Counted from the first letter of the stretch, positions 5,893-38,084 are shown. The stretch: 64,000 bases of DNA from Pirellulales bacterium (GCA_044238145.1 JBIIDT010000003.1:14155-78154); one strand, 5' to 3'. The notes: generated from the sequence alone by a model not told the origin. A program made the numbers and translations.

Positions 5893-6702
5893 ATGCCGAA
5901 CCATCCCCACGCCGCCGACCGCCCCTGCGTCGCAGGCATCCTGTTCGCGCTGCCGATCGAGGCCGACGCGTTCGAGCGGCGGGTCGTGGGCCGCCGGGAG
6001 TGGCGCAGTTCGGGGCCGGCCATGTTCGAGGGCGCGGTCGCCGGCTGCCGCGTGGCCTGGTGCGTGACGGGCGTGGGTGGCGACGCCGCCACCCGGGCCG
6101 CCCGCCTCATGCTCGACGGCCACCGCCCCGCGGCGCTCGTTGCGGCGGGCTTCGCCGGCGGACTCGACCCGGCGATCGCCCGCGGCTCCGTGGTGCGGCC
6201 GACGGCCGTCGTCCGGGAGCCGGCCGCCGGGCGGATCGGTCTCGCGACCGCCGGCTGTGGAGTCGCCGGTCCGCTGCTGGTGAGTGTCGACGCCCCGGCG
6301 ACGACACCGGATCGCAAGCGGCAACTCGCCGCCCGCACGGGTGCCGCGGTCGTCGACATGGAAACATACGCCGTCGCGGCCGTCGCGGCGGCCGCGGGCC
6401 TGCCGTGCTACGGCATCCGCGTCGTCTCCGACGACGCCGGGCAGCCGCTGCCGCCGGAGGTCGCAGCCCTCGCCCGGCCGCAGACCGCGGCCCGCCGGTT
6501 CGGCGCCGTCCTCGGCGCCCTCGGGCGGCGACCCGCCGTGGCCCTCGACCTGTGGCGGCTCTATGAGCATGCCGTGGTCGACGGCCGCGAGCTCGCCGTC
6601 GCGCTCGAGACCCTGCTCGGGGAACTGGCCTCGTCCCCTACCGCCGCCCTGCCAGGAGCCGGACCAGCGGACTCCGCGGCAGGTCGGGCACGAGCGCCGT
6701 GA
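5893..6702 (+). CDS. hpnG: Hopanoid-associated nucleoside phosphorylase (PNP/UDP family), HpnG-like
   Basis: The layout fits the PNP_UDP family: ILFALPIEA, GVGG, VVDMETYAVA and RVVSDDA. It sits next to hpnCDE. The assignment rests on family motifs plus context. Confidence 0.7.
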   Translation: MPNHPHAADRPCVAGILFALPIEADAFERRVVGRREWRSSGPAMFEGAVAGCRVAWCVTGVGGDAATRAARLMLDGHRPAALVAAGFAGGLDPAIARGSVVRPTAVVREPAAGRIGLATAGCGVAGPLLVSVDAPATTPDRKRQLAARTGAAVVDMETYAVAAVAAAAGLPCYGIRVVSDDAGQPLPPEVAALARPQTAARRFGAVLGALGRRPAVALDLWRLYEHAVVDGRELAVALETLLGELASSPTAALPGAGPADSAAGRARAP

Positions 6703-8038
6703 GCGGCCGCCCCAGCACGCGGCCGACCTCCTCCGCCGCCAGCCGCCCGCTGCGGACCGCTCCCTCCATCGTCGAAGGCCAGCCGGTCGCGGTCCAGTCG
6801 CCGGCGAGAAACAGGTTGGCGACCGCCGTCCGCGGCCCGGGCCGCACCGCCTCGACTCCGGGCCGTACCGAGAGCACGGCGGTGGGATCGGTGACGATCC
6901 GCACGTCGAGGAGCCGCGCGTCGCGGGCGGCGGGAAAGACCTCGCGGAGCTCCGCGACCACCGCGTCGCGGAGGCCGTCGCGGTCGCCCCCGAGGAGCCC
7001 CCGCGAGGCACTGATCACGACCTGGCAGTGACCGCCCGCGTCGGCCTCGGCCCGGAACACCCACTGGGAGACGCGGCCGACGAGCACGGCGTGCGGCAGG
7101 TCGACGACGTCGCGGTCGAACCAGAGATGCACCGCGGTGATCGGCGACCCGGTGAGCCGGGCGTCGGCGTCGGGCACGAGGTCGGGCAGCAGCCGGGCGG
7201 CCTGCCGCCAGGGCACCGCCACGAGCGCCGCCGCGCAGGGCACGGACTCGTCGCCGCACCGCACGGCGACGACCCGGTCGCCGACGCGGTCGAATCCCGT
7301 CACGCTCGTCCGCGTGCGGACCGCGGCACCGCGCGCCTCGAGCCAGCGGACGAGCCGGTCGCCGAACAGCGTGCCCAGCGGCTCGGTGGGCACGAGCAGG
7401 TCCGCGGCCTCGCGGTGGGCGAGGAACCCGTCCACGACCACCTTGCGGGCGGCGGCGACGCTCACGAGATCGATCGACTCGCCGAGCGCGCTCTCGAGCA
7501 CCGGCTGCCAGAACAGGCGGATCACCCGGTCCGGCTGGCCGACGGCCTGCAGCCAGTGGAGCGCCGTCCGCGCGTCCCCAGCGGCCGCCAGGCGGGCGAG
7601 CCGGAGCATGCCCACCGCCAACGCCGCCTTCTCCCCGAGCGTGAAGTGCCGCATGCCCGCCAGCAGCGGCGTCAGGTGCAGCGGCGCGGGCAGCCACCGG
7701 GACGGCGTGCAGGCCGCCCGCCGACCGTCGTCCCCGATGAACCACAGCGTGCGATCGCGGCGCAGGGCGTCGGCGAGGCCCGTCCGCCGGCAGAGATCGA
7801 GGAAGTTGGTGCAGCAGCCCATCGCCACGTGCTGGCAGGCGTCGACGAGGCCGCCCGACACGGGGTCCTCGAACGAGGCGGCGCGGCCGCCCGCATGCCG
7901 CCGCGACTCGAGGACGACGGCCGTCACACCCGCCTCGGTGAGCGCCGCCGCCGCCGCCAGGCCCGCGAGCCCGCCGCCGACGACCACCACCGTCCCGGCG
8001 GCCCGCTCCGCCTCCGTCCGTGCCGTGCCTGCGATCAT
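6638..8038 (-). CDS. hpnE: Hydroxysqualene dehydroxylase / FAD-dependent desaturase HpnE
   Basis: The Rossmann motif VVVVGGGLAGLAAAAAL is present, and the C-terminus is amine-oxidase-like (FLAGDWTATGWPSTMEGAVRSG). Its ATG at 8038 overlaps the hpnD stop (ATGA). Confidence 0.8.
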   Translation of the reverse strand: MIAGTARTEAERAAGTVVVVGGGLAGLAAAAALTEAGVTAVVLESRRHAGGRAASFEDPVSGGLVDACQHVAMGCCTNFLDLCRRTGLADALRRDRTLWFIGDDGRRAACTPSRWLPAPLHLTPLLAGMRHFTLGEKAALAVGMLRLARLAAAGDARTALHWLQAVGQPDRVIRLFWQPVLESALGESIDLVSVAAARKVVVDGFLAHREAADLLVPTEPLGTLFGDRLVRWLEARGAAVRTRTSVTGFDRVGDRVVAVRCGDESVPCAAALVAVPWRQAARLLPDLVPDADARLTGSPITAVHLWFDRDVVDLPHAVLVGRVSQWVFRAEADAGGHCQVVISASRGLLGGDRDGLRDAVVAELREVFPAARDARLLDVRIVTDPTAVLSVRPGVEAVRPGPRTAVANLFLAGDWTATGWPSTMEGAVRSGRLAAEEVGRVLGRPLTALVPDLPRSPLVRLLAGRR

Positions 8039-8913
8039 GCGAGGTATCCGCGGTACGGACGGCCCGGCCCCAGGAGGGTGGTCGCCGCGGCCGCCACGAC
8101 GATCGCGGCGCGGCTCGGCCGCACGCGGGCCGTGAAGATCCGCGGCCCCGCCCGCCGCACGGCCTCGAAGAGCCGCCGGTAGACGCCGAACATCGCCCGA
8201 AAGGCGAGCCGGCCGTCGGTCGAGAGCATGCGGTCGAGGCGGGCGGCGCGGGCGTAGCAGGCGGCCGCGCGATCGCACGACAGCGCCGCGAGCCGGGCGA
8301 ACCCCGGCCCGATCCGGCCCGCCACGAGGTCGTCGATCGTGCAGCCGCTGGCGGCGAAGTCCTCGGCCGGCAGGTAGATGCGGCCGCGGGCGCGGTCCTC
8401 GGGGATGTCCCGGAGGATGTTCGTGAGCTGGAAGGCGAGGCCGCAGTCGTGCGCGGCCGCGACCGCGGCGGGGTCGCGAAAGCCCCACACGTGGATCGCC
8501 GCGAGGCCCACGGCGGTCGCCACCCGCCGGCAGTATTCCTCCAGTTCGGCGAACGTGCCGTATCGGGCCTGGTCGAGGTCCATCCGCACGCCGGCGAGGA
8601 TGTCCGCGATGGCCGCGCGGGGCACGGCGAAGCGGCGCACCGTGTCGGCCAGGGCCCGCACGACGGGATCGGCGATCGGCTCCCCGTCGAGACCGCGGAC
8701 CACCTCCCGCTCGAAGGCGGCGAGTGCCGAGCGGGCGGCCGCCGGATCGGCCGCGTCGTCCACGATGTCGTCGGCGCGGCGACAGAACGCGTACAGGGCG
8801 GTGGTGCCCCGCCGCTTCGCCGCCGGCAGGATCCGAATCGGGCCCGCGAAGCTCGAACCGCTCCGCTGCAGGGCGGCGGAGCAGGCAGCGTGGTCGGCGG
8901 CGAGATCGATCAT
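8035..8913 (-). CDS. hpnD: Presqualene diphosphate synthase HpnD (squalene/phytoene synthase family)
   Basis: Family motifs are YAFCRRADDIVDD and NILRDIPEDRARGRIYLP. It shows 4-nt start/stop overlaps with both hpnC and hpnE. Confidence 0.85.
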   Translation of the reverse strand: MIDLAADHAACSAALQRSGSSFAGPIRILPAAKRRGTTALYAFCRRADDIVDDAADPAAARSALAAFEREVVRGLDGEPIADPVVRALADTVRRFAVPRAAIADILAGVRMDLDQARYGTFAELEEYCRRVATAVGLAAIHVWGFRDPAAVAAAHDCGLAFQLTNILRDIPEDRARGRIYLPAEDFAASGCTIDDLVAGRIGPGFARLAALSCDRAAACYARAARLDRMLSTDGRLAFRAMFGVYRRLFEAVRRAGPRIFTARVRPSRAAIVVAAAATTLLGPGRPYRGYLA

Positions 8914-9848
8914 GGACTGCCCGCCTGCGACCAGACGGCGATCCAGGCGGCCCGGGCCGCGAGGGCGAACTTCCGGCCGCGGCCGACGGTGGGCCGCCGC
9001 GCCAGGGTGTCGCCACCGACCCGCTCGATGGCGTCGGCCACGGCCCGGCCGCCCCCAAGAAACATGGCGATCGCCGGCCGCAGGGCCCGAGGGGCCGCGG
9101 CGACGAGGGGCGCCCCGCGGTCGAAGCACTCGCGGGCCCAGACGACCTCGTGCCGGACGAGTTCCCTCAGGGCAGGGGAGGCCCGCGGCGCGTCGAGGTC
9201 GGCCTCCGCCACGGCGAACCGAGCCATGTCGTCCGCGGGCAGGTAGACCCGTCCGGCGAGCCGATCACGCCTGATGTCCTGCCAGAAGTTGACGAGTTGC
9301 AGCCCGGAGCAGATGGCGTCGGACATGGCGACGAGCTGCGGGTCACGGCAGCCCTCGAGGGCGAGCACGATCCGGCCCACCGGGTCGGCCGAGCGACGGC
9401 AGTAGTCGAGCAGATCCGCCCGGTCGGCGTACCGGGTCTTCACCTGATCCTGGCGGAACGCATCGAGCAGGTCGGCGAACGGCTCGATGCCGACGCCGGT
9501 CGACCGGGCCGTGTCGGCCAGCGCCACGAACACCGGGTGCCGCGGCCGCCCCGCGAAACACTCCTCGAGGCCCGCCCGCCAGGCAGCCAGATCCCGCAGC
9601 GCCGCGTCGGACCCGACGGCCTCGTCGGCCAGATCGTCGGCCCAGCGGGCGAACGCGTATACGTTCGCCAGGTGCTGCCGCAGCCGGGCGGGCACCAGCC
9701 GGGTGGCCACGGTGAAGTTCTCGTAATGGCGCGCCGCCACCTGCCGACAGAAGGCCCGCGCGGCCTCGATGTCGTCGCCGGCGGGCAGGGGCGCGAGCCG
9801 CCAGGCCGCGGGGTCGCGGCGGGCGGCGGGGATCGTTTCGCTGGTCAT
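8910..9848 (-). CDS. hpnC: Hydroxysqualene synthase HpnC (squalene/phytoene synthase family)
   Basis: Family motifs are ENFTVA, YAFARWADDLADE and NFWQDIRRDRLAGRVYLP. The upstream part of the 602-aa track ORF was trimmed. Confidence 0.85.
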   Translation of the reverse strand: MTSETIPAARRDPAAWRLAPLPAGDDIEAARAFCRQVAARHYENFTVATRLVPARLRQHLANVYAFARWADDLADEAVGSDAALRDLAAWRAGLEECFAGRPRHPVFVALADTARSTGVGIEPFADLLDAFRQDQVKTRYADRADLLDYCRRSADPVGRIVLALEGCRDPQLVAMSDAICSGLQLVNFWQDIRRDRLAGRVYLPADDMARFAVAEADLDAPRASPALRELVRHEVVWARECFDRGAPLVAAAPRALRPAIAMFLGGGRAVADAIERVGGDTLARRPTVGRGRKFALAARAAWIAVWSQAGSP

Positions 9849-9950
9849 GCGCGGCGCCCAGGGGACAATCTGGCCGGGCAAACGGGGCTCCACTACCATA
9901 CCGTGTCGGACCGGCCCCGCGTGGCCGGCCTGCCGTCGGCGCCAACCACC

Positions 9951-10904
9951 ATGAAAATCCTGCTCGCCAGCCCCCGCGGATTCTGCGCGGGCGTCAACAT
10001 GGCCATCGAGACGCTGGAGACGGCCATCCGGCTGTACGGCACGCCGGTCTACGTGTTCCACGAGATCGTCCACAACAAGCACGTCGTCGACCGCTTCGTC
10101 CGAGAGGGAGCCGTGTTCGTCGACGCCGTGGAGGAGGTGCCCGAGGGGGCCGTGCTCCTGTTCTCGGCCCATGGCGTGGCCCCGGAGGTGCGGCGGGTCG
10201 CGGAGGCCCGGCGGCTGCGGGCGATCGACGCCACGTGCCCGCTGGTCACGAAGGTGCACCTCGAGGCGATCAAGTACGCCAAGCAGGGCTACCGGATCAT
10301 GCTCATCGGTCACGAGGGGCACGACGAGGTGATCGGCACCATGGGGCAGGCGCCGGCCGCGTTCACGCTGGTCGAGACGCCCGACGCGGTCGACGGGCTC
10401 CCCTTCGGGCCCGACGACAAGCTCGCCTACCTCACGCAGACCACGCTCTCGGTGGACGATGCGTCGCGGATCATCAAGCGGCTCAAGGAGCGGTTCCCGC
10501 ACATCGTCGGCCCGCCCAAGGACGACATCTGCTACGCGACGCAGAACCGCCAGGAGGCCGTGCGGCTGCTCTCCGAGGGGGCCGACATGGTGATCGTGCT
10601 CGGCAGCCAGAACAGCTCCAACAGCCAGCGACTCGCGGAACTCGCCCGCGAGCAGGGCATCCCCGCCCACCTCATCGACGGCGCCAACGAGATCGAACCG
10701 GCCTGGTTCCAAGGCCACGAGACCGTGCTGATCACGGCCGGGGCGAGCGCGCCGGAGCGGGTCGTGCAGGACTGCATCACGTGGCTCCGGGAGCGGTACG
10801 GTGCCACCGTCGAGGAGCGGACGATCCGGGAGGAGGAGGTCTACTTCCCGCTCCCGAAGGAACTGCGGGCCGCGGCCGGGGCCGTTCAGCTACCGATGGC
10901 ATGA
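9951..10904 (+). CDS. ispH: 4-hydroxy-3-methylbut-2-enyl diphosphate reductase
   Basis: MKILLASPRGFCAGV, ATCPLVTKVH, HEGHDEV and SSNSQRL are classic IspH/LytB motifs including the cluster cysteines. Confidence 0.95.
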   Translation: MKILLASPRGFCAGVNMAIETLETAIRLYGTPVYVFHEIVHNKHVVDRFVREGAVFVDAVEEVPEGAVLLFSAHGVAPEVRRVAEARRLRAIDATCPLVTKVHLEAIKYAKQGYRIMLIGHEGHDEVIGTMGQAPAAFTLVETPDAVDGLPFGPDDKLAYLTQTTLSVDDASRIIKRLKERFPHIVGPPKDDICYATQNRQEAVRLLSEGADMVIVLGSQNSSNSQRLAELAREQGIPAHLIDGANEIEPAWFQGHETVLITAGASAPERVVQDCITWLRERYGATVEERTIREEEVYFPLPKELRAAAGAVQLPMA

Positions 10905-10951
10905 GGGGCGGGTGAGCCTCACCGGCTCTCGTCTCACCACTCCATCGACCA

Positions 10952-11119
10952 GGGGTGGGATTGCCCATGCCCTGAGAGCCGGCGTAGGCGGCCAGCGGAA
11001 CCATGGATGGCGGAGCGCAGACGCCTCCGAGAGAGCGGAGCCCAGGCACCGAGCCGCCGCAGGCGGATTGGTCGGGGCGCAGCGAACGTCCGGCGACGGG
11101 GCCTGGGCAACCTCACCCC
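10952..11119 (+). repeat. Intergenic TIR repeat element, copy A (168 bp, longest and most diverged copy)
   Basis: The ends are GGGGTGGGATTGCCCATG and CCTGGGCAACCTCACCCC, complementary at 15 of 18 positions. It shares internal blocks with copies B and C: GATGGCGGAGCGCAG, GAGCGGAG and AGCGAACGTCCGGCGAC. It lies between the convergent genes ispH and ettA. Confidence 0.7.
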
Positions 11120-11142
11120 GTGCGCACCAGCCGAGGTCCAAC

Positions 11143-12816
<1,674 letters not shown>

Positions 12817-12995
12817 CGTGGCGGTCGCTGCTCCGTGCGGTGTGGCGGGCGGGGTCGAGTCGGGAAATGGTACCGGACGGACCTGCCGTGAACGAGGCCC
12901 GAGACCACGGACTCGTTGCAGCGCGGGAGGCGATGGTCTAGGATTTCGGCGGTTGGTCGGCCGCGTCCCGCGGCCGCGCCCGAGGAGACGCCGCC

Positions 12996-13889
12996 ATGCC
13001 CGAATACGCCCAGCCCGACGTGCTGGTGTCCACCGAATGGGTCGCCGGACACCTCGCCGATCCCACGGTTCGCATCGTCGAGTCCGATGAGGATCGGGCC
13101 CTCTACACCCAGGGCCACATCCCCGGCGCCGTCGAGATCGACTGGGCCGTCGACCTGCAGTGCCCGGTGGTCCGCGACTACATCGACCGGCAGGCCTTCG
13201 AGCGGCTGTGCGCCGAGCGGGGCATCTCCAACGACACCACGGTGGTCTTCTACGGCGACAAGAGCAACTGGTGGGCCTGCTACGCGTTCTGGGTGTTCAA
13301 GCTCTACGGCCACCGGGACTGCCGGATCATGAACGGCGGCCGGAAGCGTTGGGAGCTCGACGGCCGCGCCTGGTCGAACGAGCGCGTCTCCTATCCGCGG
13401 GCGACCTACTCCGCGCAGGAGCAGGATGGCTCGATCCGCGCCCTCCGCGACGAAGTCCTCAAGCACTGCAAGGCCGGCAAGCAGCTGCTCGACGTCCGCA
13501 GCCCCGAGGAATACCGTGGCGAGCGGATGCACATGCCCGACTATCCCAACGAGGGCGCCGTCCGGGGCGGACATGTTCCCGGGGCCCTCAACGTGCCCTG
13601 GCCGATGAACTGCCACGAGGACGGCACGTTCAAGTCCGCCAAGGAGCTGGAGAAGCTGTACGTCAAGGAACTCCGCATGAAGCGCCGGTCGCCGACCATC
13701 GCCTACTGCCGGATCGGCGAGCGGTCGAGCCTCACGTGGTTCGTGCTCAGGTACCTGCTCGGCTTCGGCAACGTGAAGAATTACGACGGCTCGTGGCTGG
13801 AGTGGGGCAACGCCGTGCGGGTGCCGATCGCCAAGGGAGCCGAGCCGGGCGGCAGGGCCGCCGCGGCCGCCACCACGGCCCACGCGTAG
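12996..13889 (+). CDS. Thiosulfate/3-mercaptopyruvate sulfurtransferase (double rhodanese)
   Basis: There are two rhodanese modules. The active-site loop is [10 protein letters not shown] (the CRxGxR type), and GHIPGA is also present. Confidence 0.87.
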
Positions 13890-13892
13890 CGC

Positions 13893-14327
13893 ATGAGCGG
13901 CGTCCGCGAGAAGGTCGACGAGATCGTCGGCGAGTTTTCCGACCTCGACGGTCGTGAAAAACTCGAACTGCTCGTCGACTACGCCAACGGCCTGCCGCCG
14001 TTGCCGCCGGCCTACGAGGCCCGCAAGGCAGCCGAGGACCGCCGCGTGCACGAGTGCCAGACACCCGTCTTCCTGTGGACCGAAGTGGAGCAGGGGATGG
14101 CGCGGGTCGTGGCCGAGGTCGCGCCGGAGGCGCCGACGGTGAAGGGCTTCGTGGCGATCCTGGCCGCGGCGGTGAACGGCCGCCCCGTCGCGGAGGCGGC
14201 TGCCATCCCCGAAGACCTGCTGGAGCGGCTCGGGCTGGCCGACGTGCTCGGCATCCTCCGCTCCCGCGGCCTGCGGTCGATCACGGCCCGCATCAAGCGC
14301 GGCCTGGCCGAGGCGGCGGCCCGTTGA
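13893..14327 (+). CDS. sufE: SufE-family sulfur acceptor protein
   Basis: The sequence RVHECQTPVFLW contains the conserved persulfide-accepting Cys context, and the 144-aa size fits SufE. It starts 3 nt after the rhodanese stop. Confidence 0.8.
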   Translation: MSGVREKVDEIVGEFSDLDGREKLELLVDYANGLPPLPPAYEARKAAEDRRVHECQTPVFLWTEVEQGMARVVAEVAPEAPTVKGFVAILAAAVNGRPVAEAAAIPEDLLERLGLADVLGILRSRGLRSITARIKRGLAEAAAR

Positions 14328-14549
14328 AGGCACCGATGAAGGCACCAGACATCCCCCGTCTCGCATGCAGGAACCGCCACCCTCCGCGGTCGTTCGGGAC
14401 CGGACACGCCAGGGCAGGCGAGGGGATCGGCGTGAGGATGCGGAGCGTGGCGGACGTTCGCCAGCGACGCAACTCATGCCGTCCCCGAGCCGGGTTGGGC
14501 TTTTCGACTCCCTCCGTCCCGCGCATCGCCACCCCGAAAAGGACCGTCC

Positions 14550-15578
14550 GTGTCACCCGCTGAAAAAGTCGTCGCCGGCATCGACCTCGGCGGCACGGCC
14601 ATCAACTACACGTTCCTCGACGAGCGTGGCCAGTTCCTGATCGACGGCCTGTGCGAGCATCCGGCCCGCAGCGTCGAGGGACCGGACGTCTGCCTGGGAC
14701 AGATCGAGGTCGGCCTGCAGGCGGCCGCCGCCCGGGCCGGACTGGAACTCGGGAAGCTCGTGGCGGTGGGCCTCGACACGCCGGGGCCGGCGAGTGCGGC
14801 TGGAGTCCTGAGCCGCCGCGGCTCGACGAACTTCGTCCACCCCGACTGGGCCGGCTTCGACATGCGGGCCGGCCTCGAGAAGCGGCTCGGCCTGCCCGTG
14901 ACCTATCTCAATGACGGCAACGCCGCCGCCCTGTGGGGCCACGTCGCGATCTTCGGCTCCGAGAACGCGGCCACGAGCGTGTCCGCGATCATCGGCACGG
15001 GCCTCGGCGGCGGCGTGATCACCGGCGGCCGCGTCGTCACCGGCCGCAACGGCTTCGGCGGCGAGCTGGGGCACGTGCTCCTGCCGTGGACGGTGATCCC
15101 GGGCATCGAGGGTCTGGTGCCGAAGTGCAACTGCGGCCGCACGGGCGACCTCGAGTCGCTCTGCTCGCTGACGGCGATCCGCCAGTCGCTCCTGCCGCAC
15201 TTCCTCGTCCGGCATCCGGGGCACCCGCTGGCCGCGGAGGCCGACGTGGGCCGGGCGGCCAAGCTGGTCCGCGGCCTCGCGGAGCGGGGCGACGAGATGT
15301 GCCGGGCGATCTTCCGCGTCCAGGCCCGGGCCCTGGGCCTGTTCTTCGACGAGATGATCAACGTCTTCGATCCCGACGCGCTGATCGTGGGGGGCGGCGC
15401 CGTCGAGACCGACGAGGCCTTCCGCCGCTGGTTCCTCACCGAGATCCGCGCCGGCATGCCGACGCAGCGCGAGGAGCAGGCCGACCTGCCGATCCACGTC
15501 ATGCCCGCCGGCGACACGGCCGGCGCCCGCGGCGCCGCCCTCGACGCCGCGAGGATGGTTCGCGAACGGGGACTGTAG
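14550..15578 (+). CDS. ROK-family sugar kinase
   Basis: VAGIDLGGTAIN is the ATPase phosphate-1 motif. NDGNAAALW and GGELGH are present, and the Cys-rich segment is PKCNCGRTGDLES. The start codon is GTG. Confidence 0.8.
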   Translation: MSPAEKVVAGIDLGGTAINYTFLDERGQFLIDGLCEHPARSVEGPDVCLGQIEVGLQAAAARAGLELGKLVAVGLDTPGPASAAGVLSRRGSTNFVHPDWAGFDMRAGLEKRLGLPVTYLNDGNAAALWGHVAIFGSENAATSVSAIIGTGLGGGVITGGRVVTGRNGFGGELGHVLLPWTVIPGIEGLVPKCNCGRTGDLESLCSLTAIRQSLLPHFLVRHPGHPLAAEADVGRAAKLVRGLAERGDEMCRAIFRVQARALGLFFDEMINVFDPDALIVGGGAVETDEAFRRWFLTEIRAGMPTQREEQADLPIHVMPAGDTAGARGAALDAARMVRERGL

Positions 15579-15599
15579 CGGCGGCCTCGAACCGCCGGG

Positions 15600-16712
15600 T
15601 CAGGCGACCTGGTCGAGCACCGGCAACGCCGGCAGGCCGTTGGGCTGGAGCCGCGGGGCGGGGGAGGGCAGGGGCCGCAGATCGGCGGGTTTCGCCCGCG
15701 GGGGCCCGAAGATCATCAGCCGCGCGGTGGCGAGCAGGCCACTCAGCGACCCGAACGTGGCCTCCACGGCCGCCGGCTCGTAGCCGCAGTGCACCATGCA
15801 GTCGCGGCACTTGGGATTCCCGCTGGCCCGCCCGTAACGGTCCCAGTCGGTCTCCTCCATCAGTTCGCGAAACGTCCGCGAATAGCCCTCGTCGAGCAGG
15901 TAGCAGGGCCGCTGCCAGCCGAAGAGGTTGTAGGTGGGCGTGCCCCAGGGACGGCATTCGAGTTCCCACGCTCCCTTGAGGAACTCGAGAAACACCGGTG
16001 ACTGATTGAACTTCCAGCGCCGCGGCGCCCCGTCGAGCATGCGGCGAAAGAGCGACTGGCTCCGCTGCCGGGGCAGGAAGTGGTCCTGGTCGGGCGCCTT
16101 GGAGTAGGAGTAGCCCGGCGAGATCATCATCCCCTCGACGCCGAGGGCCATCACGTCGTCGAAGAACTTCCGGTAGCGGCCGGGATCGGCGTCGGTGAAG
16201 AGCGTGGAGTTGGTCGTCACCCGGAAGCCGGCCCGGCGGGCGGCCTTGATCGCCGCCACCGCGGCGTCGTACACGCCCTCCCGGCAGACGGCGTGGTCGT
16301 GCTCCTCGCGCGGCCCGTCGAGATGCACGGAGAAGGCCAGGTAGGGGGAAGGCTCGAAGTGCGGCAGCATCTCCTCGAGCTTGAGCGCGTTGGTGCACAG
16401 GTAGAGGTATTTCCTACGGGCCACGATGCCGGCCACGATCTGCTCGATCTGCGGGTGCAGGAGCGGCTCGCCGCCGGGGATCGAGACGATCGGCGCCCCG
16501 CACTCGTCCACCGCAGCGAAGCACTGCTCCGGTGTGAGGTGCGAGCGGAGGATCTCGACGGGGTGCTGGATCTTGCCGCAGCCACCGCAGGCGAGGTTGC
16601 AGCGGAAGAGCGGCTCGAGCATGAGCACGAGCGGATAGCGGTCGTTGCCCCGCAGCCGCTGGACGGCCACGTGCCGCAGCACCGCCAGCATCTGCCCGAT
16701 CGGCACGCTCAT
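15600..16712 (-). CDS. hpnH: Adenosylhopane synthase (radical SAM) HpnH
   Basis: MLEPLFRCNLACGGCGK carries the radical SAM CxxxCxxC motif. The conserved tail is GNPKCRDCMVHCGYE. Its ATG at 16712 overlaps the shc stop by 4 nt. Confidence 0.9.
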   Translation of the reverse strand: MSVPIGQMLAVLRHVAVQRLRGNDRYPLVLMLEPLFRCNLACGGCGKIQHPVEILRSHLTPEQCFAAVDECGAPIVSIPGGEPLLHPQIEQIVAGIVARRKYLYLCTNALKLEEMLPHFEPSPYLAFSVHLDGPREEHDHAVCREGVYDAAVAAIKAARRAGFRVTTNSTLFTDADPGRYRKFFDDVMALGVEGMMISPGYSYSKAPDQDHFLPRQRSQSLFRRMLDGAPRRWKFNQSPVFLEFLKGAWELECRPWGTPTYNLFGWQRPCYLLDEGYSRTFRELMEETDWDRYGRASGNPKCRDCMVHCGYEPAAVEATFGSLSGLLATARLMIFGPPRAKPADLRPLPSPAPRLQPNGLPALPVLDQVA

Positions 16713-18766
16713 GCGACCCGCTCCACCCGCCGGGCGGCGGCGTGCCGCGTCATGCGGATCAGCGCGATGAGCGGGAAGTAAATCGGGTACCAGTGGTACC
16801 GCAGGTAGAACACCCGCGGAAAGCCGGTGCCCGTGAACTCGTCCTGCAGCCACGTGCCGTCGGCCTCCTGCCGCTCGACCAGCCAACGCACGCCGGCCTG
16901 CACCGCCCGCGACTCCCCGCGGCCCGCCGAGACCAGCCCGGCCACGGCCCATGCGGTTTGCGAGGCGGTCACCGGCCCGACGCCCGCGAGCGCCCGATCG
17001 GTGTAACTCTCGGGCGACTCGCCCCAGCCGCCATCGGGCTGCTGATGGGCCTCCAGCCAGTCGGCGGCGTGGGCGACGAGCGGGTCGGCCGGGCACACGC
17101 CGACCGCTTGCAGGCCCTGGAGCGCCTGCCAGGTGCCGTAGATGTAGTTCACTCCCCAGCGGCCATACCACGAACCGTCGGCCTCCTGGGTCTTCTCCAG
17201 GTAGGCGATCGCCCGCTCGACCGCCGGGTGACCGCGGCGCAGTCCCGTCTTGCCGAAGGCCTCGAGCACCCGACCCGCGAGGTCGGGCGAACTCGGGTCG
17301 ATCATCGCGTTGTGGTCGGCGAACGGCACCTTGCAGAGCAGTTCGCAGTCGTTGTCGAGATCGAACGCCCCCCAACCACCGTCTGTGTTCTGCATCGCCG
17401 CGAGCCAGCCGACGGCCCGGGCGACCGCGGCTGCCACCCGGCGCCGCCGCTCTTCCCCGGCGGGGACCGCCGCCGGACTGTCCAACCATGTCGCCAGCGC
17501 GATGACCACCATCGCGGTGTCGTCGACGTCGGGGTAGAAGCGGTTGGCGTATTGGAAACACCAGCCCGAGGGCTCGGCCCGCGTCCGCCGCGCCCAGTCG
17601 CCGGTGGCACGGATCTCGTTGTCGAGCAGCCAGTCCACGGCCTTCGCGAGCTCCCCGTCATCGATCGTAAGATCGCCGGCCGCGGCCGCCTCGGTGAGGC
17701 CGATGAGCGTGATCGCCGTGTCCCAGACGGGCGAGCGGCACGGTTCGATCCGGGTCGTGCCGTCCGGCTCCTGCTCGACGAGGCCGTCGAGCTGCCGCCA
17801 GCACTCCCGCACCTCCGGCGCATCCTCGTCACAGCCCATCGCCCGCAGGGCCACGATGCTCCATACGATCGGCGGAAAGATGGCCCCCAGGCCATCGCTG
17901 CCGGAAAACCGCTCGAGCATCCAGCGGCGACACGCCTGGATCGCCCGGGCCCGGAGCGGCATGAAGCCCACCGCCTCGCAGGCCTTCATGAACAGGTCGG
18001 TGCCTCGAAAGAATCGCGCCCAGAAGCTGCGGTCGACCGGGGGCGGCGGGCCGCGCCGATCCCGCGCCGTGAATAGTTCGGCGATGCCGCGACCCGCCGG
18101 AATCGGCCGCAGCGGCTTGAACGCCCACATCAGCGACAGCGGCACGATCATCGTCCGCGACCAGGCCGACACCCGGTGCAGGTTGATCGGAAACCAGTCC
18201 GGCAGGAGCACCATCTCGGGCGGCACCGCCGGACAGGCGGCGTAGGGCATCTGGCCGAGCAGGGCCAGATAGAACTTCGTGAAACTGTTGACGGCCCACG
18301 GTCCACCGGCGGCTGCGATCGCCTGCCGCGCCCGCACGAGCGCGGGTGACCGCGGGTCGTGGCCGGTGAGTTTGAGCGCCAGGTACGCTTTCACGCTCGC
18401 GCTGACGTCGACGGGGCCGCCGGGATGGATCGCCCAGCCCCCCTCGGGCAGTTGCAGCGCCAGGATCCGCCGGGCCGCCCCGGCCACGTCCGGTCGCTCG
18501 AGCCGACCGGACCACGCGAGGATCAGGATGAACTCGCTCTCGAGGATGGTGTCTCCTTCGAGCGGGCCGCGCCAGTGGCCGTCGGCGGACTGCTGCGATC
18601 GCAGCCAGGCCGCCACGCGGGCGGCGGCGGTCCGCACGTCGCGGCCGTCGGGCTCGAAACCGGTCCCGCGGGCCGGGGCATGCCGGCCCGTGCGGAACGG
18701 GCGGCCGACCGTGACGGACGGCTCATCCGTCGCGGTGCCGGCGAGGCTCTCGTGGACCGAACTCAT
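16709..18766 (-). CDS. shc: Squalene-hopene cyclase
   Basis: The catalytic motif DVDDTAMVV is present. There are multiple QW repeats (DGGWGAF, DGSWYGRWG, DGGWGES). The start was set at MSSVHES (18766). Confidence 0.95.
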   Translation of the reverse strand: MSSVHESLAGTATDEPSVTVGRPFRTGRHAPARGTGFEPDGRDVRTAAARVAAWLRSQQSADGHWRGPLEGDTILESEFILILAWSGRLERPDVAGAARRILALQLPEGGWAIHPGGPVDVSASVKAYLALKLTGHDPRSPALVRARQAIAAAGGPWAVNSFTKFYLALLGQMPYAACPAVPPEMVLLPDWFPINLHRVSAWSRTMIVPLSLMWAFKPLRPIPAGRGIAELFTARDRRGPPPPVDRSFWARFFRGTDLFMKACEAVGFMPLRARAIQACRRWMLERFSGSDGLGAIFPPIVWSIVALRAMGCDEDAPEVRECWRQLDGLVEQEPDGTTRIEPCRSPVWDTAITLIGLTEAAAAGDLTIDDGELAKAVDWLLDNEIRATGDWARRTRAEPSGWCFQYANRFYPDVDDTAMVVIALATWLDSPAAVPAGEERRRRVAAAVARAVGWLAAMQNTDGGWGAFDLDNDCELLCKVPFADHNAMIDPSSPDLAGRVLEAFGKTGLRRGHPAVERAIAYLEKTQEADGSWYGRWGVNYIYGTWQALQGLQAVGVCPADPLVAHAADWLEAHQQPDGGWGESPESYTDRALAGVGPVTASQTAWAVAGLVSAGRGESRAVQAGVRWLVERQEADGTWLQDEFTGTGFPRVFYLRYHWYPIYFPLIALIRMTRHAAARRVERVA

Positions 18767-18926
18767 GCAACCATCCCTGCTGCCACTGACGCGAGCGATC
18801 CATCGCCCGCCATACGGTGAGGTTCGGGGAAGATTAAAGAGCGGCGGAAACACCGACAAGTCCGGAAGGAAGGGCGAGCCTGCCCCGGGCGACCTGGCGC
18901 GACACACGGGGAAAGATGGGCGAGGT

Positions 18927-19661
18927 TTACGGCCTGCCGGCCCCGCCTCCCGGGCCAGCCAGCGGCATCTCGATGGTCACCCGCGTGCCACCCCCGGGTC
19001 GTGAATCAACTCGGACGGCGCCGCCGTTGAGCTCCACCAGCCGCCAGGCCTTCGGCAGACCGAGGCCGATGCCGCGGCCCGCCTCGCGGCCGCTGAAGAA
19101 CGGGTCGAAGGCCCGACGCAGCGTGGCGGCGTCCATGCCCCGGCCGTCGTCGGCCACCTCGATCTCGGCCGCCGTCACACCGGCGCGGGCCGCCACCCCC
19201 ACCTGGCCGCCGTCCTCCACCGCCTCGACGGCGTTCATGACCACGGCCCGCAACGCCTCGACGACCTGCCCGACATCCACCATGACCTCGACCGGCCGCG
19301 GGGGCGGGGCGAACTCCAGCCGCAGGCCGCGGGCCACGGCAGTGGGCCGCAGCGGCTCGAGCACGGCCCGCACGATCTCGCCGATCGCCGCCACCACCGG
19401 CTGCGGCCGCGGCGGCCGCGCGAAGACCATCAGCCCGCCGATCATGTCGCGGGCCCGGAAGGCCTGGTCCACGATCGTCGCCAACCGGCGGCGGCGCTCC
19501 GGATCGCGCTCGTCGACGAGCAGCGCCTGCGCCCGCGCGGCGATGTTGGCCAGCGGGTTGTTGATCTCGTGCCCGGCCCCATAGGCGAACTCGCGGAGCG
19601 CCTCGAGCCGGGCCTCGGCGAGGGCCGCCTCGAACCGCTGGTCGCTCGCGGCCTCGTTCAT
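18927..19661 (-). CDS. Soluble histidine kinase with HisKA and HATPase domains only; no TM helix or sensor domain visible
   Basis: The H-box is GHEINNPLANI. The ATPase boxes are MNAVEA, DDGRGM and GIGLGL. An AGGAG sequence lies 7 nt before the ATG. Confidence 0.8.
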   Translation of the reverse strand: MNEAASDQRFEAALAEARLEALREFAYGAGHEINNPLANIAARAQALLVDERDPERRRRLATIVDQAFRARDMIGGLMVFARPPRPQPVVAAIGEIVRAVLEPLRPTAVARGLRLEFAPPPRPVEVMVDVGQVVEALRAVVMNAVEAVEDGGQVGVAARAGVTAAEIEVADDGRGMDAATLRRAFDPFFSGREAGRGIGLGLPKAWRLVELNGGAVRVDSRPGGGTRVTIEMPLAGPGGGAGRP

Positions 19662-19686
19662 CCGGTCGCTCCTCGCGGCGGCCCCG

Positions 19687-19730
19687 AAAAAAAGCGGCCG
19701 CCCGCACCCGGCGGGGGGGCGGGCGGCCGC
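19687..19730 (-). terminator. Intrinsic terminator between the response-regulator and kinase genes
   Basis: On the minus strand it reads GCGGCCGCCCGC, a 13-nt loop, GCGGGCGGCCGC, then TTTTTTT. That is a perfect 12-bp stem plus a U-tract. It lies 32 nt after the regulator stop and 26 nt before the kinase ATG. Confidence 0.7.
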
Positions 19731-19761
19731 GACGTTGCGCTCCAGGCGGCGGGCCGACGGC

Positions 19762-20349
19762 TCACGAACCGGCGACGCCCGACTCGATGTCGAGCAGGCT
19801 GCAGATCCGGTCGACGAGCATCTCGGCCTCGAACGGCTTCTGCAGGAACTCGTTGGCCCCGGACGCCTTGAGGTCCTCGATCTTGTCCGGCTCGCACATG
19901 CCGGAGATGCAGATGATCCGCACCTCGTCCATGGTCGAGTCGCTGCGGACCCGCTGGCAGACCTCCTTGCCGTTGATGTCCGGCAGCATGACGTCGAGCA
20001 CGATCAGGTCGGGACGATAGTCCTTGACCATCATGCCGGCGTCGAAGCCGTTGTTCACGCTGCGGGTCTCGAACCGGCCGTCCTTCTCGAGGACGTCCGT
20101 GATCAGCTCGACGAGATCCTGGTCGTCGTCGACGACGAGGATCTTTCGCCGCCCACTCTCCAGGGCATCGGTCGGGATCCCGTTGTCGCGCATGAACAGG
20201 AACAACTGGTCACGCGGGATCCGGCGAAACCGGCTGCCCGGCACCCGGAATCCCTTCAACTGGCCCGAGTCGAAGCAGCGAATGATCGTCTGCTGACTCA
20301 CCTTGCAAATCTTGGCGGCTTCGCCGGTCGTGTACACGGTCTTCTGCAT
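19762..20349 (-). CDS. Response regulator with an N-terminal excisionase/MerR-type HTH followed by a receiver domain
   Basis: YTTGEAAKICKVSQQTIIRCFDSGQLKGFRVPGSRFRRIP is the HTH. KILVVDDDQDL...DLIVLDVMLPDING is the receiver. The start was set at the ATG at 20349, which is preceded by GGGAGAGGGTGG. Confidence 0.8.
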   Translation of the reverse strand: MQKTVYTTGEAAKICKVSQQTIIRCFDSGQLKGFRVPGSRFRRIPRDQLFLFMRDNGIPTDALESGRRKILVVDDDQDLVELITDVLEKDGRFETRSVNNGFDAGMMVKDYRPDLIVLDVMLPDINGKEVCQRVRSDSTMDEVRIICISGMCEPDKIEDLKASGANEFLQKPFEAEMLVDRICSLLDIESGVAGS

Positions 20350-20639
20350 CTGCTTTACCACCCTCTCCCTAGCCGTGGTGCAGCTAGTCAAAACGGCGGC
20401 CCGGGGGCTCCTCGCGAGCGACTCGACCCCGAACGCCTAGGCCTCCTTGCAGCGGTCTCATGACGCCGTCGCCACAACGGTCGCCATTCGCGTCGCACTC
20501 CGTGCCGACGCAGTTCTCCGAACGTTCCCGGTCCGTCCGGGAACACCGGTCCGGCAACGACGCAGGCCGGGGAAAGAGGGGGAAAGGACTCCGCTTCCTT
20601 CAACCGCTTCCCTGCATGCCATCCTTGCCAGACAACCCA

Positions 20640-20669
20640 ACTCTACAGGCGGCTTTCGCGGCGAGTCAA
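20640..20669 (-). promoter_or_regulatory. Sigma-70-like promoter candidate (TTGACT-18 nt-TAGAGT) about 290 nt upstream of the HTH-receiver gene
   Basis: The minus strand reads TTGACTCGCCGCGAAAGCCGCCTGTAGAGT. It sits just downstream of the terminator at 20733-20758 in a stretch that looks less GC-rich. Planctomycete promoter consensus is poorly known. Confidence 0.35.
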
Positions 20670-20732
20670 TATCGTTCCAGACGCCGCAAACCCCTTGTTC
20701 GCAGGCCTTTGGGCGAAGCCTCCAAAAGCCTG

Positions 20733-20758
20733 AAAAAATCGCCGCCCGCGATGGCGGC
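20733..20758 (-). terminator. Intrinsic terminator after the UbiC-like gene
   Basis: The minus strand reads GCCGCC-ATCGCG-GGCGGC followed by GATTTTTT. It lies 31 nt downstream of the stop at 20789. Confidence 0.7.
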
Positions 20759-20788
20759 CCAGCCCGCCGGCGTTGCCGTGCCGACGCG

Positions 20789-21340
20789 TCACCCGGGCGC
20801 GACGATCTCGAGCAACTCGACCGCGGGCACGCCACCCACGCGAATCTCCGCGACGCGGCCGAAGGCCACGGCGTCCGGCGGACCGCCGAACAGCGCGGCG
20901 AGGTGCGGCCCGGCCGTGACCCGGAGGAGGCGGACTTGTTGCACGTCGCAGAGCAGGCCGGCGTCGACGAGGATACGGCCAAGCGGCATGCGGCCCGCGC
21001 GGATCGCGGCCGCAGTCTCCGGCGGAACCGCGGCCAGGTCGATGCGCACGATGCCGTGCTGCACGACCCTCCCGTCGCGAAGGAGGAGGATCTCCCGGGC
21101 GTAGCGATCGCGGTCGGCTGTCCCCGGCCGCTCGGCGACGATCCGCAGCTCGACCGGGCCGCCGTGATGCCGTTCCATCGCCACGGTCATGTGGCTGCGA
21201 TGATCGAGCAGCCGGCGGGGCTGATCGGGGACCGCGTCCGCCGGGAGTTCCTCGAACCGGCCGAACGCGTCCGGATCGGCGTGAAACTCCCGGACGATCG
21301 CCAGGGCCCGCCCGACGGCGGTGGGGTCAGCGGGCTGCAT
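20789..21340 (-). CDS. Chorismate pyruvate-lyase-like protein (UbiC/DUF98 fold)
   Basis: It is collinear with E. coli UbiC blocks. RYAREILLLRDGRVV matches RYWLREILLCADGEP, GRMPLGRIL matches GKTPLGRYL, and the tail FGRVAEIRVGGVPAVELLEIVAP matches [22 protein letters not shown]. The start was set at the internal ATG at 21340. Confidence 0.65.
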   Translation of the reverse strand: MQPADPTAVGRALAIVREFHADPDAFGRFEELPADAVPDQPRRLLDHRSHMTVAMERHHGGPVELRIVAERPGTADRDRYAREILLLRDGRVVQHGIVRIDLAAVPPETAAAIRAGRMPLGRILVDAGLLCDVQQVRLLRVTAGPHLAALFGGPPDAVAFGRVAEIRVGGVPAVELLEIVAPG

Positions 21341-21414
21341 CGGATGGCGACAAGGAGGGGAACACCGTTCGGGGATTCTCCCGCCGCCGGCCGCCGGCCG
21401 CAAGCCGCGGCGGT

Positions 21415-23235
21415 TCAGCCGGCCCCGACGTCGGCCGCCGACTCGGGTACGGCCAGATCGAGCAGGAACTCGAGGACTTCGCGGAGCCGCGGCAGCCGAC
21501 AGCCCGCGATCGCCGCCGCCGCCCCGGCCCGTTCGTCGCGCACGATCGCCGCGGTCCGCACGAACACGTCGGCCCGCCGATAGAGCTCCCGCGCTTCGGC
21601 GACCGCAGCAGCAACGGCCGCCTCCGGGGCATCCGCCGCTGCGGCCATGCCGGCGAGCTTCCGCAGCCGAGCCGCGTCGTCGCCCGACAGCCGTTCCATC
21701 GCCAGCGCCCACATCACCGTGGGCCGGCCGCCGAGCAGGTCGCCGGCCGCCCGCCGGGCGTTCTCCAGGTCGCCCTGCCAATCCTTCAAGTCGTTGAGCA
21801 CCTGGAAGCCGGTGCCAACGTGCAGGGCATAGCGATCGACGGCAGCCGCGACGCCGGGCTCGAGCCCCGCCAGCCGAATGCCAATCGCGATCGCGGCCTC
21901 GAACGCGGGGGACGTCTTGAGCCCGTAGATCGCCAGGGCCTCGGCTGGGGCGAGCCGCCTGTCGCCGTCGTCGCGCCACCAGAGTTCCGCCCCCTGTCCG
22001 CGGGCGAGCCGCACGTGGGCGTCGGCCAGGAGCCGGACGACGTCGCGGGACGTGCCGGCGTCGACGCCGACGAGACCCGAGACGATGCGGTAGCCGAGGC
22101 CGAGCAGGTGGTCGCCCACGTTGATCGCCGTGGGCACGCCCCGGGCGCGGTGCAGCGTCGACTGGCCGTACCGCATGGCGTCATCGTCCTCGATGTCGTC
22201 ATGGACGAGCGAGGCCTTGTGGAACACCTCGATCGCCACGGCGGCCGCCTTGACCGATTCGCGGACGACCGCGGGATCCGCCGCGTAGCCGGCGGCCGTG
22301 GCCACCGCCGGCTGCACCACCTGCAGGTCGGCCCGCACCGCGTCGTAGGCCGCCAGGGCGATGAACGGCCGCAGGAACTTGCCACCGCGGGCGAGGAAAT
22401 CGGAACCCAGCGCCGCGGTGGCATCGAGTGGCAACAGCCGTCCGGTGGCCACGGGCGGCGGCAACGCCTCGGCGAGTCCCAGCCGGCCGCCGAGCGCGGC
22501 GAGCGCCTCGGGGGCGAACATTTCGGCCGCCTCGCGGAGCAGGGGCAGATAGTCGCCCATCGGGGCCGTGGCCCCGCCCCCCACACCGAGCAGGCCCAGC
22601 ACCCAGTCGACGTCGATCGCGACGGCCTCGGCACACGGGCCGCCGGCCACGGCATCGCCCGCCGGCCGGCAGGGAACCGCCGCCACGGGCAAGGAAAATG
22701 CCGGCAGCATCGCGAACGCCTTCTCGAGGTGCTCGAGTTTCGCCACGCCGAGAATGCCGTCGTACTGACCGGTGAGCAGGGAGCCGATCGCGGCCACGGC
22801 CCGGTTCGTCGATTCGACCACCCAGCCCGAGTCGCGGGCGGCGGCCCAGATCGTCGCGATCCCGCAGGCCGGCCCGCACACGTGGGGCACGAGCGACTCG
22901 CCGGCGGCGGACACGCGTGGGCAATCGGGCAGGAGCAGCAGCCGCCGACCACTGGCACCCGCGGCCAGCCGCTCCCGCCAGTATTCCGACACGATCGTGA
23001 CCATCGTCCAGCCGACGAGATCGGCGCCACCCCCGGCTCGGGTGACGAGCGACTCGGCAACCGATCGCAGCCCCGCGGCTGTGCGTGCCGCGGGCGGCAG
23101 CCCGTCCGCCCGCCACCCCGCGACGAGGTCGCTCGCCAGGGCCCGAAGCCGGTCGCGGGCCGGCCGCGACGCAGGACAGGCGAGCGGGCCGGCGGGAGCA
23201 GGAGCGGGACGAGCGACGGCGGCGGTACGGTTCAC
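21415..23235 (-). CDS. Fusion protein: N-terminal DUF116-like Cys-rich domain plus a C-terminal polyprenyl diphosphate synthase domain
   Basis: The DUF116-like part is LLLLPDCP...HVCGPACGIATIW...DGILGVAKLEHLEKAF...LPVAAVPC. The synthase part has the first Asp-rich motif LVHDDIEDDDAMRYG, but the second motif reads FQVLNDLKDW. The start is uncertain: GTG at 23235 was chosen, and the next ATG gives MVTIVSEYW. Confidence 0.72.
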   Translation of the reverse strand: MNRTAAVARPAPAPAGPLACPASRPARDRLRALASDLVAGWRADGLPPAARTAAGLRSVAESLVTRAGGGADLVGWTMVTIVSEYWRERLAAGASGRRLLLLPDCPRVSAAGESLVPHVCGPACGIATIWAAARDSGWVVESTNRAVAAIGSLLTGQYDGILGVAKLEHLEKAFAMLPAFSLPVAAVPCRPAGDAVAGGPCAEAVAIDVDWVLGLLGVGGGATAPMGDYLPLLREAAEMFAPEALAALGGRLGLAEALPPPVATGRLLPLDATAALGSDFLARGGKFLRPFIALAAYDAVRADLQVVQPAVATAAGYAADPAVVRESVKAAAVAIEVFHKASLVHDDIEDDDAMRYGQSTLHRARGVPTAINVGDHLLGLGYRIVSGLVGVDAGTSRDVVRLLADAHVRLARGQGAELWWRDDGDRRLAPAEALAIYGLKTSPAFEAAIAIGIRLAGLEPGVAAAVDRYALHVGTGFQVLNDLKDWQGDLENARRAAGDLLGGRPTVMWALAMERLSGDDAARLRKLAGMAAAADAPEAAVAAAVAEARELYRRADVFVRTAAIVRDERAGAAAAIAGCRLPRLREVLEFLLDLAVPESAADVGAG

Positions 23236-23294
23236 GAATCGGGCATTCCGAGAGTGGGGAGGTCCGATTGTAGAACCGTCCCCCCCGATCTTGG

Positions 23295-27282: not shown

Positions 27283-27412
27283 GGGGGTGCCCATGCCCTC
27301 TCGCCGGACGTTCGTTTCGGCCCTCCAGGCCTCCACTCACTGCGTGTCGGCTGCGCTGCGCCATCCTGGCTGCGCTTGCCTCCCCAGCCCGCTCGAAGGC
27401 ATGGGCACCCCC
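27283..27412 (-). repeat. Intergenic TIR repeat element, copy B (130 bp, inverted relative to copy C)
   Basis: It has perfect 15-bp terminal inverted repeats, GGGGGTGCCCATGCC and GGCATGGGCACCCCC. Its reverse complement aligns with copy C through the blocks GGCAAGCGCAGCCAGG, GATGGCG, AGCGCAGCC, AGTGAG, GGAGGCC, CGAACGTCCGG and GGCATGGGCA. Confidence 0.78.
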
Positions 27413-27849: not shown

Positions 27850-27867
27850 GATGCTGCAGAGTGTGCC

Positions 27868-38073: not shown

Positions 38074-38084
38074 ACGCCAGGGAA

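Follow-up and report, generated by a model that had tools for sequence, protein, structure and literature searches.

Repetitive extragenic palindromes (REPs) are simple imperfect palindromes of 20-40 nt. The long-hairpin MITEs (miniature inverted-repeat transposable elements) carry conserved terminal inverted repeats and target-site duplications (TA for Correia), and they can be co-transcribed and alter the expression of their neighbours. REPs are typically found close to stop codons, as head-to-head dimers (PMC3733652, Di Nocera et al. 2013). The class 3 Y1 proteins, found mainly in Planctomycetes and Acidobacteria, go with 'atypical' high-copy hairpins in which a CnGA foot is followed by GCCG (PMC6006769, Quentin et al. 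2018). Here we describe an element of about 132 nt that occurs three times (copies A, B and C) in 64,000 nt of DNA from a Pirellulales bacterium (GCA_044238145.1 JBIIDT010000003.1:14155-78154; hereafter the window; G+C ~72%). We found that copies A, B and C are members of a large dispersed non-coding repeat family of planctomycetes, apparently undescribed. We give a probability of roughly 55% to the reading that the family is a high-copy, non-coding, non-autonomous element, specific to the Planctomycetota, that works like REP/REPIN elements.

Three window copies of a dispersed planctomycete repeat

The three copies align with a mean column identity of 75% (MAFFT) and match the covariance model of the family (R1, below) at E 6e-33 to 6e-23 (Table 1), as expected from a first-pass annotation of the window, which had proposed three homologous segments. 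Copies B and C are 82% identical across 132 nt, and copy A matches both save for a 27-nt insertion (blastn). The terminal inverted repeats are perfect over 13/13 positions in C (GGGGTTGCCCATG / CATGGGCAACCCC; 17/18 when lengthened, with the flanks GGAA/TTCC pairing too) and over 15/15 in B (GGGGGTGCCCATGCC), and match at 15/18 in A; these values were the same as those first reported, and the common internal blocks listed with them were also present. Both blastn and an R1 search with filters off gave A, B and C as the sole family members in the window, the next-best R1 score being the reverse strand of C (19.9 bits) and all others reaching at most 15 bits. Two segments put forward earlier as degenerate relatives do not belong to the family: 14345-14495 holds a match of 11 bits (14407-14499, E 0.5) and a hairpin of a second family (Table 1), and 56085-56180 has no R1 match.

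We scanned one genome per species with the exact pattern GGATGGCGNAGCGCAG-N33-63-CGAACGTCC (24 fixed bases) and found at least 120 matching loci (L001-L120, 0.76 Mb), on which the family counts below rest unless stated otherwise. Nearly all come from metagenome-assembled genomes (MAGs) of Planctomycetota with a G+C of 64-74%, labelled Pirellulales, Planctomycetia or Planctomycetaceae, or from 'Kuenenia'-labelled bins. The repeats had been ascribed to a dispersed family, as opposed to a local duplication with only these copies, and the at least 120 loci support the former. An alignment of 112 copies (A2) gave R1, with which we found 164 copies in the loci (168 by nhmmer), of which about 21 are truncated where a contig ends; such truncation is typical of assembly-breaking repeats. 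The density beyond the seed matches is about 1 per 17 kb, and 1 per 21 kb in the window, and by extrapolation a genome carries a few hundred copies. Units are 119-159 nt long, with a median of 132 nt (mostly 130-134, with two insertion variants at 158-159), and multiples of three are not over-represented among their lengths (63/137).

Rfam 15 at its gathering threshold matched a tRNA gene in the window and no family matching the element, and at E up to 10 copy C drew one chance miRNA match (E ~2). No copy was present in plasmid and viral contig collections, and we found no description of a ~132-nt family of this kind in the literature. The finding is real, and bigger than the window alone could show, and the family is phylum-wide. 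Planctomycete genomes are large and rich in repeats, and there is hardly any work on their small mobile elements and non-coding RNAs; copies of this family are numerous enough to fragment metagenome assemblies and lead gene callers astray (one copy lengthens a call by 45 codons), and the family's covariance model is immediately useful in annotation.

One branched fold kept by compensatory changes

All copies fit one architecture, and RNA and DNA energy models give the same + strand fold for copy C, with folding z-scores of -8.6 as RNA and -7.7 as DNA. The fold consists of a closing stem of ~22 bp (P1), a short stem (P2, GCCGG/CCGGC) and two hairpins (P3 and P4) on a three-way junction; the pairing of copy C reaches out to 38080-38221. 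Close to its base, P1 often has a tandem G·A that lies between the conserved 'feet' described below.

Across the 112 copies of A2, standard pairs occupy 90.2% of cells versus 32-37% with slid partners, and double-sided changes fill 531 cells versus 162 after shuffling and 69-153 with slid partners. Double changes are present at 30/48 pairs overall and at 15/17 in core P1, and 0/500 shuffles reached the observed value on any of five measures. The outer stem of P3 (helices 3 and 4) covaries; P4 comprises helices 6 and 7. P2 (helix 2) is paired in 84% of cells and shows little variation, hence it is weakly tested.

Because parts of P3 and P4 were fixed by the search pattern, 25 copies found outside the pattern were used to check these. 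In them, the apical stem of P3 alternates between GCCA/UGGC, GGCA/UGCC and GCCC/GGGC while the GGA loop is kept. At the base of P4, the pair closing the tandem G·A/A·G (5'-GUGAGC/GCGAAC-3') alternates between U-A and C-G, and in the same 25 copies a 3' G always goes with a 5' C (9/9). Both hairpin tips are CCA-GGA-UGG-like, with a near-invariant GGA triloop closed by A-U, U·G or C-G: the P3 apex reads GCCA-(U)GGA-UGGC, with GGA in nearly all copies, and the P4 apex reads GGCC-A-GGA-U-GGCC, with GGA in 86/98 copies and CGA in 7/98. These results show that the fold is kept by compensatory changes, and the abundant covariation bears out the earlier mention of structured modules.

Two other structures were considered and rejected. 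GCGNAGC mini-hairpins are broken by the GCCA/UGGC to GGCA/UGCC changes, which preserve P3. The junction, (C/G)NAG-UGA ... GAA-C, has the UGA/GAA tandem G·A half of a hammerhead core, without CUGA.

The covarying termini bear on the label 'MITE/REP-type' that the first-pass annotation had given the element. A classical MITE would derive by deletion from a DDE-type insertion sequence and would move as double-stranded DNA, through a transposase that binds its terminal inverted repeats and leaves target-site duplications. The dispersed intergenic copies, 130-170 bp long and non-coding with terminal inverted repeats, resemble the long-hairpin MITEs (Correia/NEMIS, ERIC, RUP, BOX and Nezha), and insertion polymorphism at the site of copy C (site C, below) also agrees with such an origin. 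However, the terminal repeats vary between copies on both sides together (the 15/17 pairs of P1); hence, it is pairing that is preserved and not a binding sequence. The fold is also strand-asymmetric, with an excess of G·T over A·C (below) that would be meaningless for a double-stranded site. We found no variable 3-6 bp direct repeat for any offset pair within 25 nt of the ends (129 copies), hence no target-site duplication, and neither the window nor the 0.76 Mb of loci contained a parent insertion sequence with matching ends. A classical MITE is therefore highly improbable; given also the head-to-head doublets described below, the REP half of the label fits better.

Protection of a single strand

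Each copy was oriented by its asymmetric interior and its wobble pairs were counted. We found 209 G·T/T·G versus 33 A·C/C·A overall, and 129 versus 15 in the palindromic P1. Since these two outcomes are mirror images of each other on double-stranded DNA, the G-rich strand acts as a single strand (RNA or single-stranded DNA). These results show that only one strand's fold is protected.

If that strand is RNA, the family could be a functional structured RNA that has been multiplied, with the G-rich strand transcribed (in 3' untranslated regions, in operons or from a start of its own). Its two CCA-GGA-UGG hairpins would bind a protein such as CsrA/RsmA, as a dispersed sponge or as local signals of mRNA fate, or the fold would protect mRNA 3' ends. 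The 7-mer CAGGAUG of the hairpins is identical to the repeat consensus of CsrB, and like CsrB/RsmZ the element repeats short hairpins with GGA in the loop. It differs from them in having two such sites per unit rather than 5-22, no promoter or terminator of its own, and hundreds of dispersed copies in both orientations, and its binding of CsrA is putative. The RNA reading agrees with the multi-helix architecture, whose stems covary and whose loop and junction nucleotides are near-invariant, with the GGA triloops at both apices, with the tolerance of G·U and not of A·C, and with the listing of Planctomycetes among the phyla that have CsrA plus FliW (PMC4682653). Variable length at the P4 tip, typical of structured RNAs, is seen in copy A, whose 27-nt insertion is also in the copies of L003 and L108 from other MAGs, and all three window copies are sense to their upstream gene. 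CsrA binding is the most specific of the proposals at the RNA level; if it is true that the GGA hairpins bind CsrA, they would be the first dispersed-repeat antagonist of CsrA.

As a side observation, the strand that folds is the locally C-rich one in 75 versus 37 cases (p ~3e-4; 113 near-full copies, from loci of at least 4 kb among L001-L120 plus the window); this bias is confounded with gene orientation in the 8-kb loci, and no replication-strand reading is drawn from it.

Placement relative to genes

Both neighbours are no more than 300 nt away for 39 copies, of which 20 have convergent neighbours, 18 tandem neighbours (7 sense, 11 antisense) and only 1 divergent neighbours; tandem settings over all copies comprise 13 sense and 18 antisense. 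On both sides, gene 3' ends face the element about 70% of the time, and 4/124 copies are within long open reading frames (ORFs) by a crude gene call. In the flanks there is no promoter-like consensus upstream, only a hairpin, and no T-run downstream. These results show that copies sit where insertion is least harmful, at gene 3' ends and mostly between convergent genes, and that divergent promoters are avoided. Since there is placement at gene ends and no sense preference, the element appears to be tolerated there and not to be a 5' regulator or an oriented 3'-untranslated-region signal. The same absence of a T-run and of any orientation preference relative to flanking genes leaves the terminator or insulator role proposed earlier unsupported.

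The placement also bears on the RNA reading, since the lack of a sense bias argues against CsrA binding as the primary role, and the flanks offer neither a conserved promoter-like motif nor a T-run. Rfam is without a matching family. Head-to-head doublets and solo arm fragments would be awkward for an RNA gene, and the presence, absence and orientation swaps among close relatives at site C weigh against it as well. We regard a multiplied functional RNA as possible but doubtful.

Doublets, feet and a second hairpin family

We found 13 head-to-head doublets, with spacers of 10-89 nt, and no tail-to-tail doublet (0). Solo fragments of the 3' arm are present near full copies, and L035 holds a recombinant head-to-head fusion.

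Several features were seen in and around these arrangements. The head-to-head doublets are in L017, L044, L048, L053, L054, L062, L065, L066, L080, L088, L113, L114 and L117. In about 10 of them (including L017, L048, L054, L088, L113 and L114) the spacer forms a small hairpin of its own, GCCTCC(Y)C-loop-GRGGAGGC, that resembles a Shine-Dalgarno/anti-Shine-Dalgarno pair, and this GGAGG-containing sequence is also upstream of many single copies. L087 (703-1455) has three direct copies ~297 nt apart with near-identical 150-nt spacers, which resembles tandem duplication of a larger unit.

The unit is bordered by conserved feet, [GAC]GC-GA| on the 5' side (also written ..GGC-GA|) and |GA-GCCGG on the 3' side. 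In 55 of 134 copies the core stem is bordered by GA at either end, which forms a tandem G·A in a continuing helix; in 48 the two bordering nucleotides are Watson-Crick complementary. Beyond GA come NGC/GCC pairs, often with GGAGG upstream and GCCGG downstream.

A second hairpin family, 50-110 nt long (GGGRTCGGCG...TGCCGYCCC, two subtypes), has an interior unrelated to that of the main family and the same feet, ..GGAGGCGA| and |GAGCCGG... We found it in about 15 loci (L020, L021, L027, L030, L035, L038, L067, L082, L090, L094, L096, L100, L120, L127 and L128). Hence, a common foot is combined with variable hairpins, which is the logic of REP families.

Site C in close relatives

The DUF1501 protein beside copy C is 100% identical on 21 metagenome contigs and has many orthologues at 83-95%. 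We found no element at site C in the orthologous loci L131 and L132 (93%) and L129 (85%), where the two genes overlap by ATGA or stand 4 nt apart. In L127 and L128 (91-93%), a hairpin of the second family is at the same spot. A further allele is present in four independent assemblies of the window's own population (L121, L122, L124 and L126, 4394-4537), a sister strain: it matches copy C in position, in length (132 nt) and in its 13-nt termini, and it is inverted. Once reverse-complemented, this allele is only 88% identical to copy C, with many of the differences compensatory; it is linked to single-nucleotide polymorphisms (SNPs) in the flanks, two of them within 4 nt of the right end. For each of the two alleles, another MAG contains a closer relative (93% and 92%). 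Since the common arm of 13 nt is too short, mis-assembly does not explain the swap, and the allele differences mean that site C was filled twice or that its content was exchanged through the palindromic arms. These results show that one site is empty, or filled in either orientation, among close relatives. Copy A is fixed in five population contigs (L134-L138), with SNPs only; for population variation at copy B, a look-up of the adjoining QueF protein returned no database entry.

The alternative of an exchange leads to a reading in which host recombination or template switching, by gene conversion between palindromic copies and with hairpin or cruciform extrusion driving the events, would account for the family with no dedicated transposase. 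Conversion via palindromic arms would give just such alleles, with identical 13-nt termini around opposite interiors that are 12% diverged, and the L035 fusion, the solo arm fragments and the failure to find a transposase agree with it. Recombination of this kind explains swaps at a site, however, and not new sites, and the family is at many unrelated loci in many species; the feet common to the second family suggest recognition by a protein. Host recombination as the main explanation is very unlikely.

Several side observations concern the reading frame at site C. The 132 nt of copy C are 44 codons with no stop, in frame with the ORF of the PSCyt2/PSD1 gene if the start is ATG 38070, which overlaps the DUF1501 stop as ATGA, as it does in empty orthologues; the inverted allele of the sister strains is open in frame too. 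JGI gene calls for PSCyt2/PSD1 are split between ATG 38205 and ATG 38070 (748 versus 793 aa). In this respect copy C and its inverted allele, in frame and stop-free just past the start of a coding gene, are like the Rickettsia palindromic elements, and unlike them in that this is a single such case and there is no sequence relationship.

Comparison with described elements and the enzyme acting in trans

The closest described elements are REPs and their assemblies (REPINs and bacterial interspersed mosaic elements, BIMEs), which are mobilised by the REP-associated tyrosine transposase (RAYT, TnpA_REP, HUH-Y1). The family shares with them high copy number and extragenic placement after gene 3' ends in convergent or unidirectional settings. 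It also shares compensated hairpins, a predominance of head-to-head dimers and the absence of target-site duplication, its conserved short feet beside a variable stem may correspond to the foot of REPs, and in both cases recognition of one folded single strand is implied. It differs in its 130-170 nt, its four helices with a three-way junction and its near-invariant internal loops.

A second comparison is with the hairpins of class 3 TnpA_Y1 proteins (PMC6006769), which are alike in their hosts (Planctomycetes and Acidobacteria), in high copy number, in having tandem G·A inside stems, and in a foot that ends in GA followed by GCCG(G), as in ACGAGCCGGAAGCGTCAGCGACGGGC of P. limnophila versus ...CCCC-GA-GCCGG of the element. 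The TIRtron/TIRYT repeats (PMC3733652) are alike in that their terminal inverted repeats begin with GGGG (consensus GGGGWSAS). The published hairpins, though, are 26-30 nt and do not align with the element beyond CGAGCCG, and we saw no class 3 gene in the vicinity of the copies. Hence, the link to class 3 Y1 proteins is a lead, not a finding. The attC sites of integrons (RYYYAAC / GTTRRRY) were rejected as a match: the termini of the element are GGGG(Y)TGCCC, copies are single or in inverted doublets without cassette arrays, and there is no integrase in the window.

On the reading of a REP/REPIN-like element, an enzyme acting in trans would copy or move the unit, reading the foot and hairpin on single-stranded DNA. 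The likeliest candidate would be a RAYT/TIRYT-like HUH tyrosine (Y1) transposase whose gene lies elsewhere in the genome. Effects on adjoining genes, such as structure at mRNA 3' ends or the new start codon at copy C, would be secondary. The best fit to the evidence is that the element behaves as a small parasitic mobile element and not as an ordinary gene regulator.

Several results weigh against this reading. The annotation's statement that the window holds no transposase stands: among 38 window ORFs run against Pfam there was no transposase, integrase or reverse transcriptase. We found no RAYT or other cognate Y1 transposase gene bracketed by copies (a REPtron) in the window or the 120 loci. 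Clustering of the ORFs of the 120 loci gave no recurrent mobile-element gene beside the copies, only housekeeping families (NtrC-type regulators, ABC ATPases, FabG/FabF, DUF1501, SerA and FtsH). The element is branched and 3-6 times the length of a REP, and its near-invariant loop and junction nucleotides are not obviously needed by a transposase that recognises a simple hairpin. Its foot is G-N-G-A ... GA-GCCGG, and not GTAG, CGTC or CnGA. The G·T excess could stem from strand-biased deamination and not from selection, a cause that would itself still imply single-strandedness. Finally, paired-flank blastn of the loci and a metagenome scan for an empty site-C allele gave no clean empty site with alignable flanks, and the flanks of the distant empty orthologues are too diverged; hence, the ends given for the element are provisional. 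The element departs from the definition of a REP in size, in foot sequence and in that no RAYT partner was found in the window or the loci.

One gene was considered as the partner enzyme. L129, which comes from a relative of the window's organism, encodes at 19281-20210 (-) a 309-aa protein resembling Y1 (HUH) transposases, with the motifs HFH and YIDLNP and a weak match to Pfam Y1_Tnp. It was rejected: it scores 57.9 bits versus the 80-bit cut-off of the NCBIfam REP transposase, neither the window nor the loci contain a homologue, and there are no matching inverted repeats around the gene. Relatives of this gene are present in 80 metagenome loci, none of which has a copy of the element, and this too counts against the favoured reading.

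In size, branching and near-invariant GGA loops the element exceeds the features of REPs, which leaves room for a possible role at the RNA level. Such a role could be joined to mobility, the 132-nt three-way-junction fold being both the substrate of a single-strand-specific recombinase (to insert, excise or swap in either orientation) and a transcript carrying a pair of GGA hairpins of the CsrA type. With several hundred copies in each genome, the family would then amount to a dispersed and evolvable layer of post-transcriptional control. We consider this combination unlikely. With a complex fold that is conserved across orders, and with selection that sees one strand, the element is between simple REP hairpins and structured RNAs. 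Site C, with two members in opposite orientations, offers a concrete case for how hairpin repeats move and for whether an HUH enzyme or another recombinase can read branched DNA or RNA.

Gene context of the window copies

The gene contexts assigned earlier agree with ORF and Pfam calls. Copy A is between the convergent genes ispH/LytB and an ABC-F gene (GC3-filtered ORFs, Pfam), starting 47 nt past the ispH/LytB stop (10904) and ending 23 nt before the ABC-F stop (11143). Copy B is between two tandem genes, QueF (27466-28077, -) and a xylose-isomerase-like TIM-barrel gene (26174 to ~27229, -), and is sense to both. Copy C is between the DUF1501 and PSCyt2/PSD1 genes and starts 12 nt past the DUF1501 stop codon (38071-38073).

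Table 1. Positions in the window of the family members, the parts of copies A and C, and the hairpins of the second family
Feature	Position	Strand	Description
Copy A	10952-11119	+	168 nt, full element; R1 105.6 bits, E 5.7e-23
Expansion segment at the tip of P4, copy A	11047-11073	+	CACCGAGCCGCCGCAGGCGGATTGGTC; itself a hairpin; 27-nt insertion relative to the model
Copy B	27283-27412	-	130 nt, full element; R1 125 bits, E 1.7e-27
Copy C	38085-38216	+	exactly 132 nt, full element; R1 148.5 bits, E 6e-33
P1 5' arm, copy C	38080-38102	+	partner 38199-38221; minimum-free-energy and centroid structures
P2 5' strand, copy C	38105-38109	+	GCCGG; partner 38191-38196 (CCGGGC)
P3 hairpin, copy C	38110-38156	+	core AGCGnAGCCA-(G)GGA-UGGCGnAGCGCAG; apical loop 38131-38134
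P4 hairpin, copy C	38158-38188	+	base tandem G·A/A·G (GUGAGC/GCGAAC); GGA triloop 38172-38174
P1 3' arm, copy C	38199-38221	+	in-frame ATG 38205, possible PSCyt2/PSD1 start
Second-family hairpin	14423-14485	+	
Second-family hairpin	52698-52764	+	

The region around element copies at 6638-24581 resembles a hopanoid/isoprenoid gene neighbourhood, with an amine-oxidase-type gene, ispH/LytB, squalene-hopene cyclase (16709-18907), polyprenyl synthetase and a radical-SAM gene. The tRNA gene that is the window's only Rfam match is at 59890-59963 (-), with 72.9 bits.

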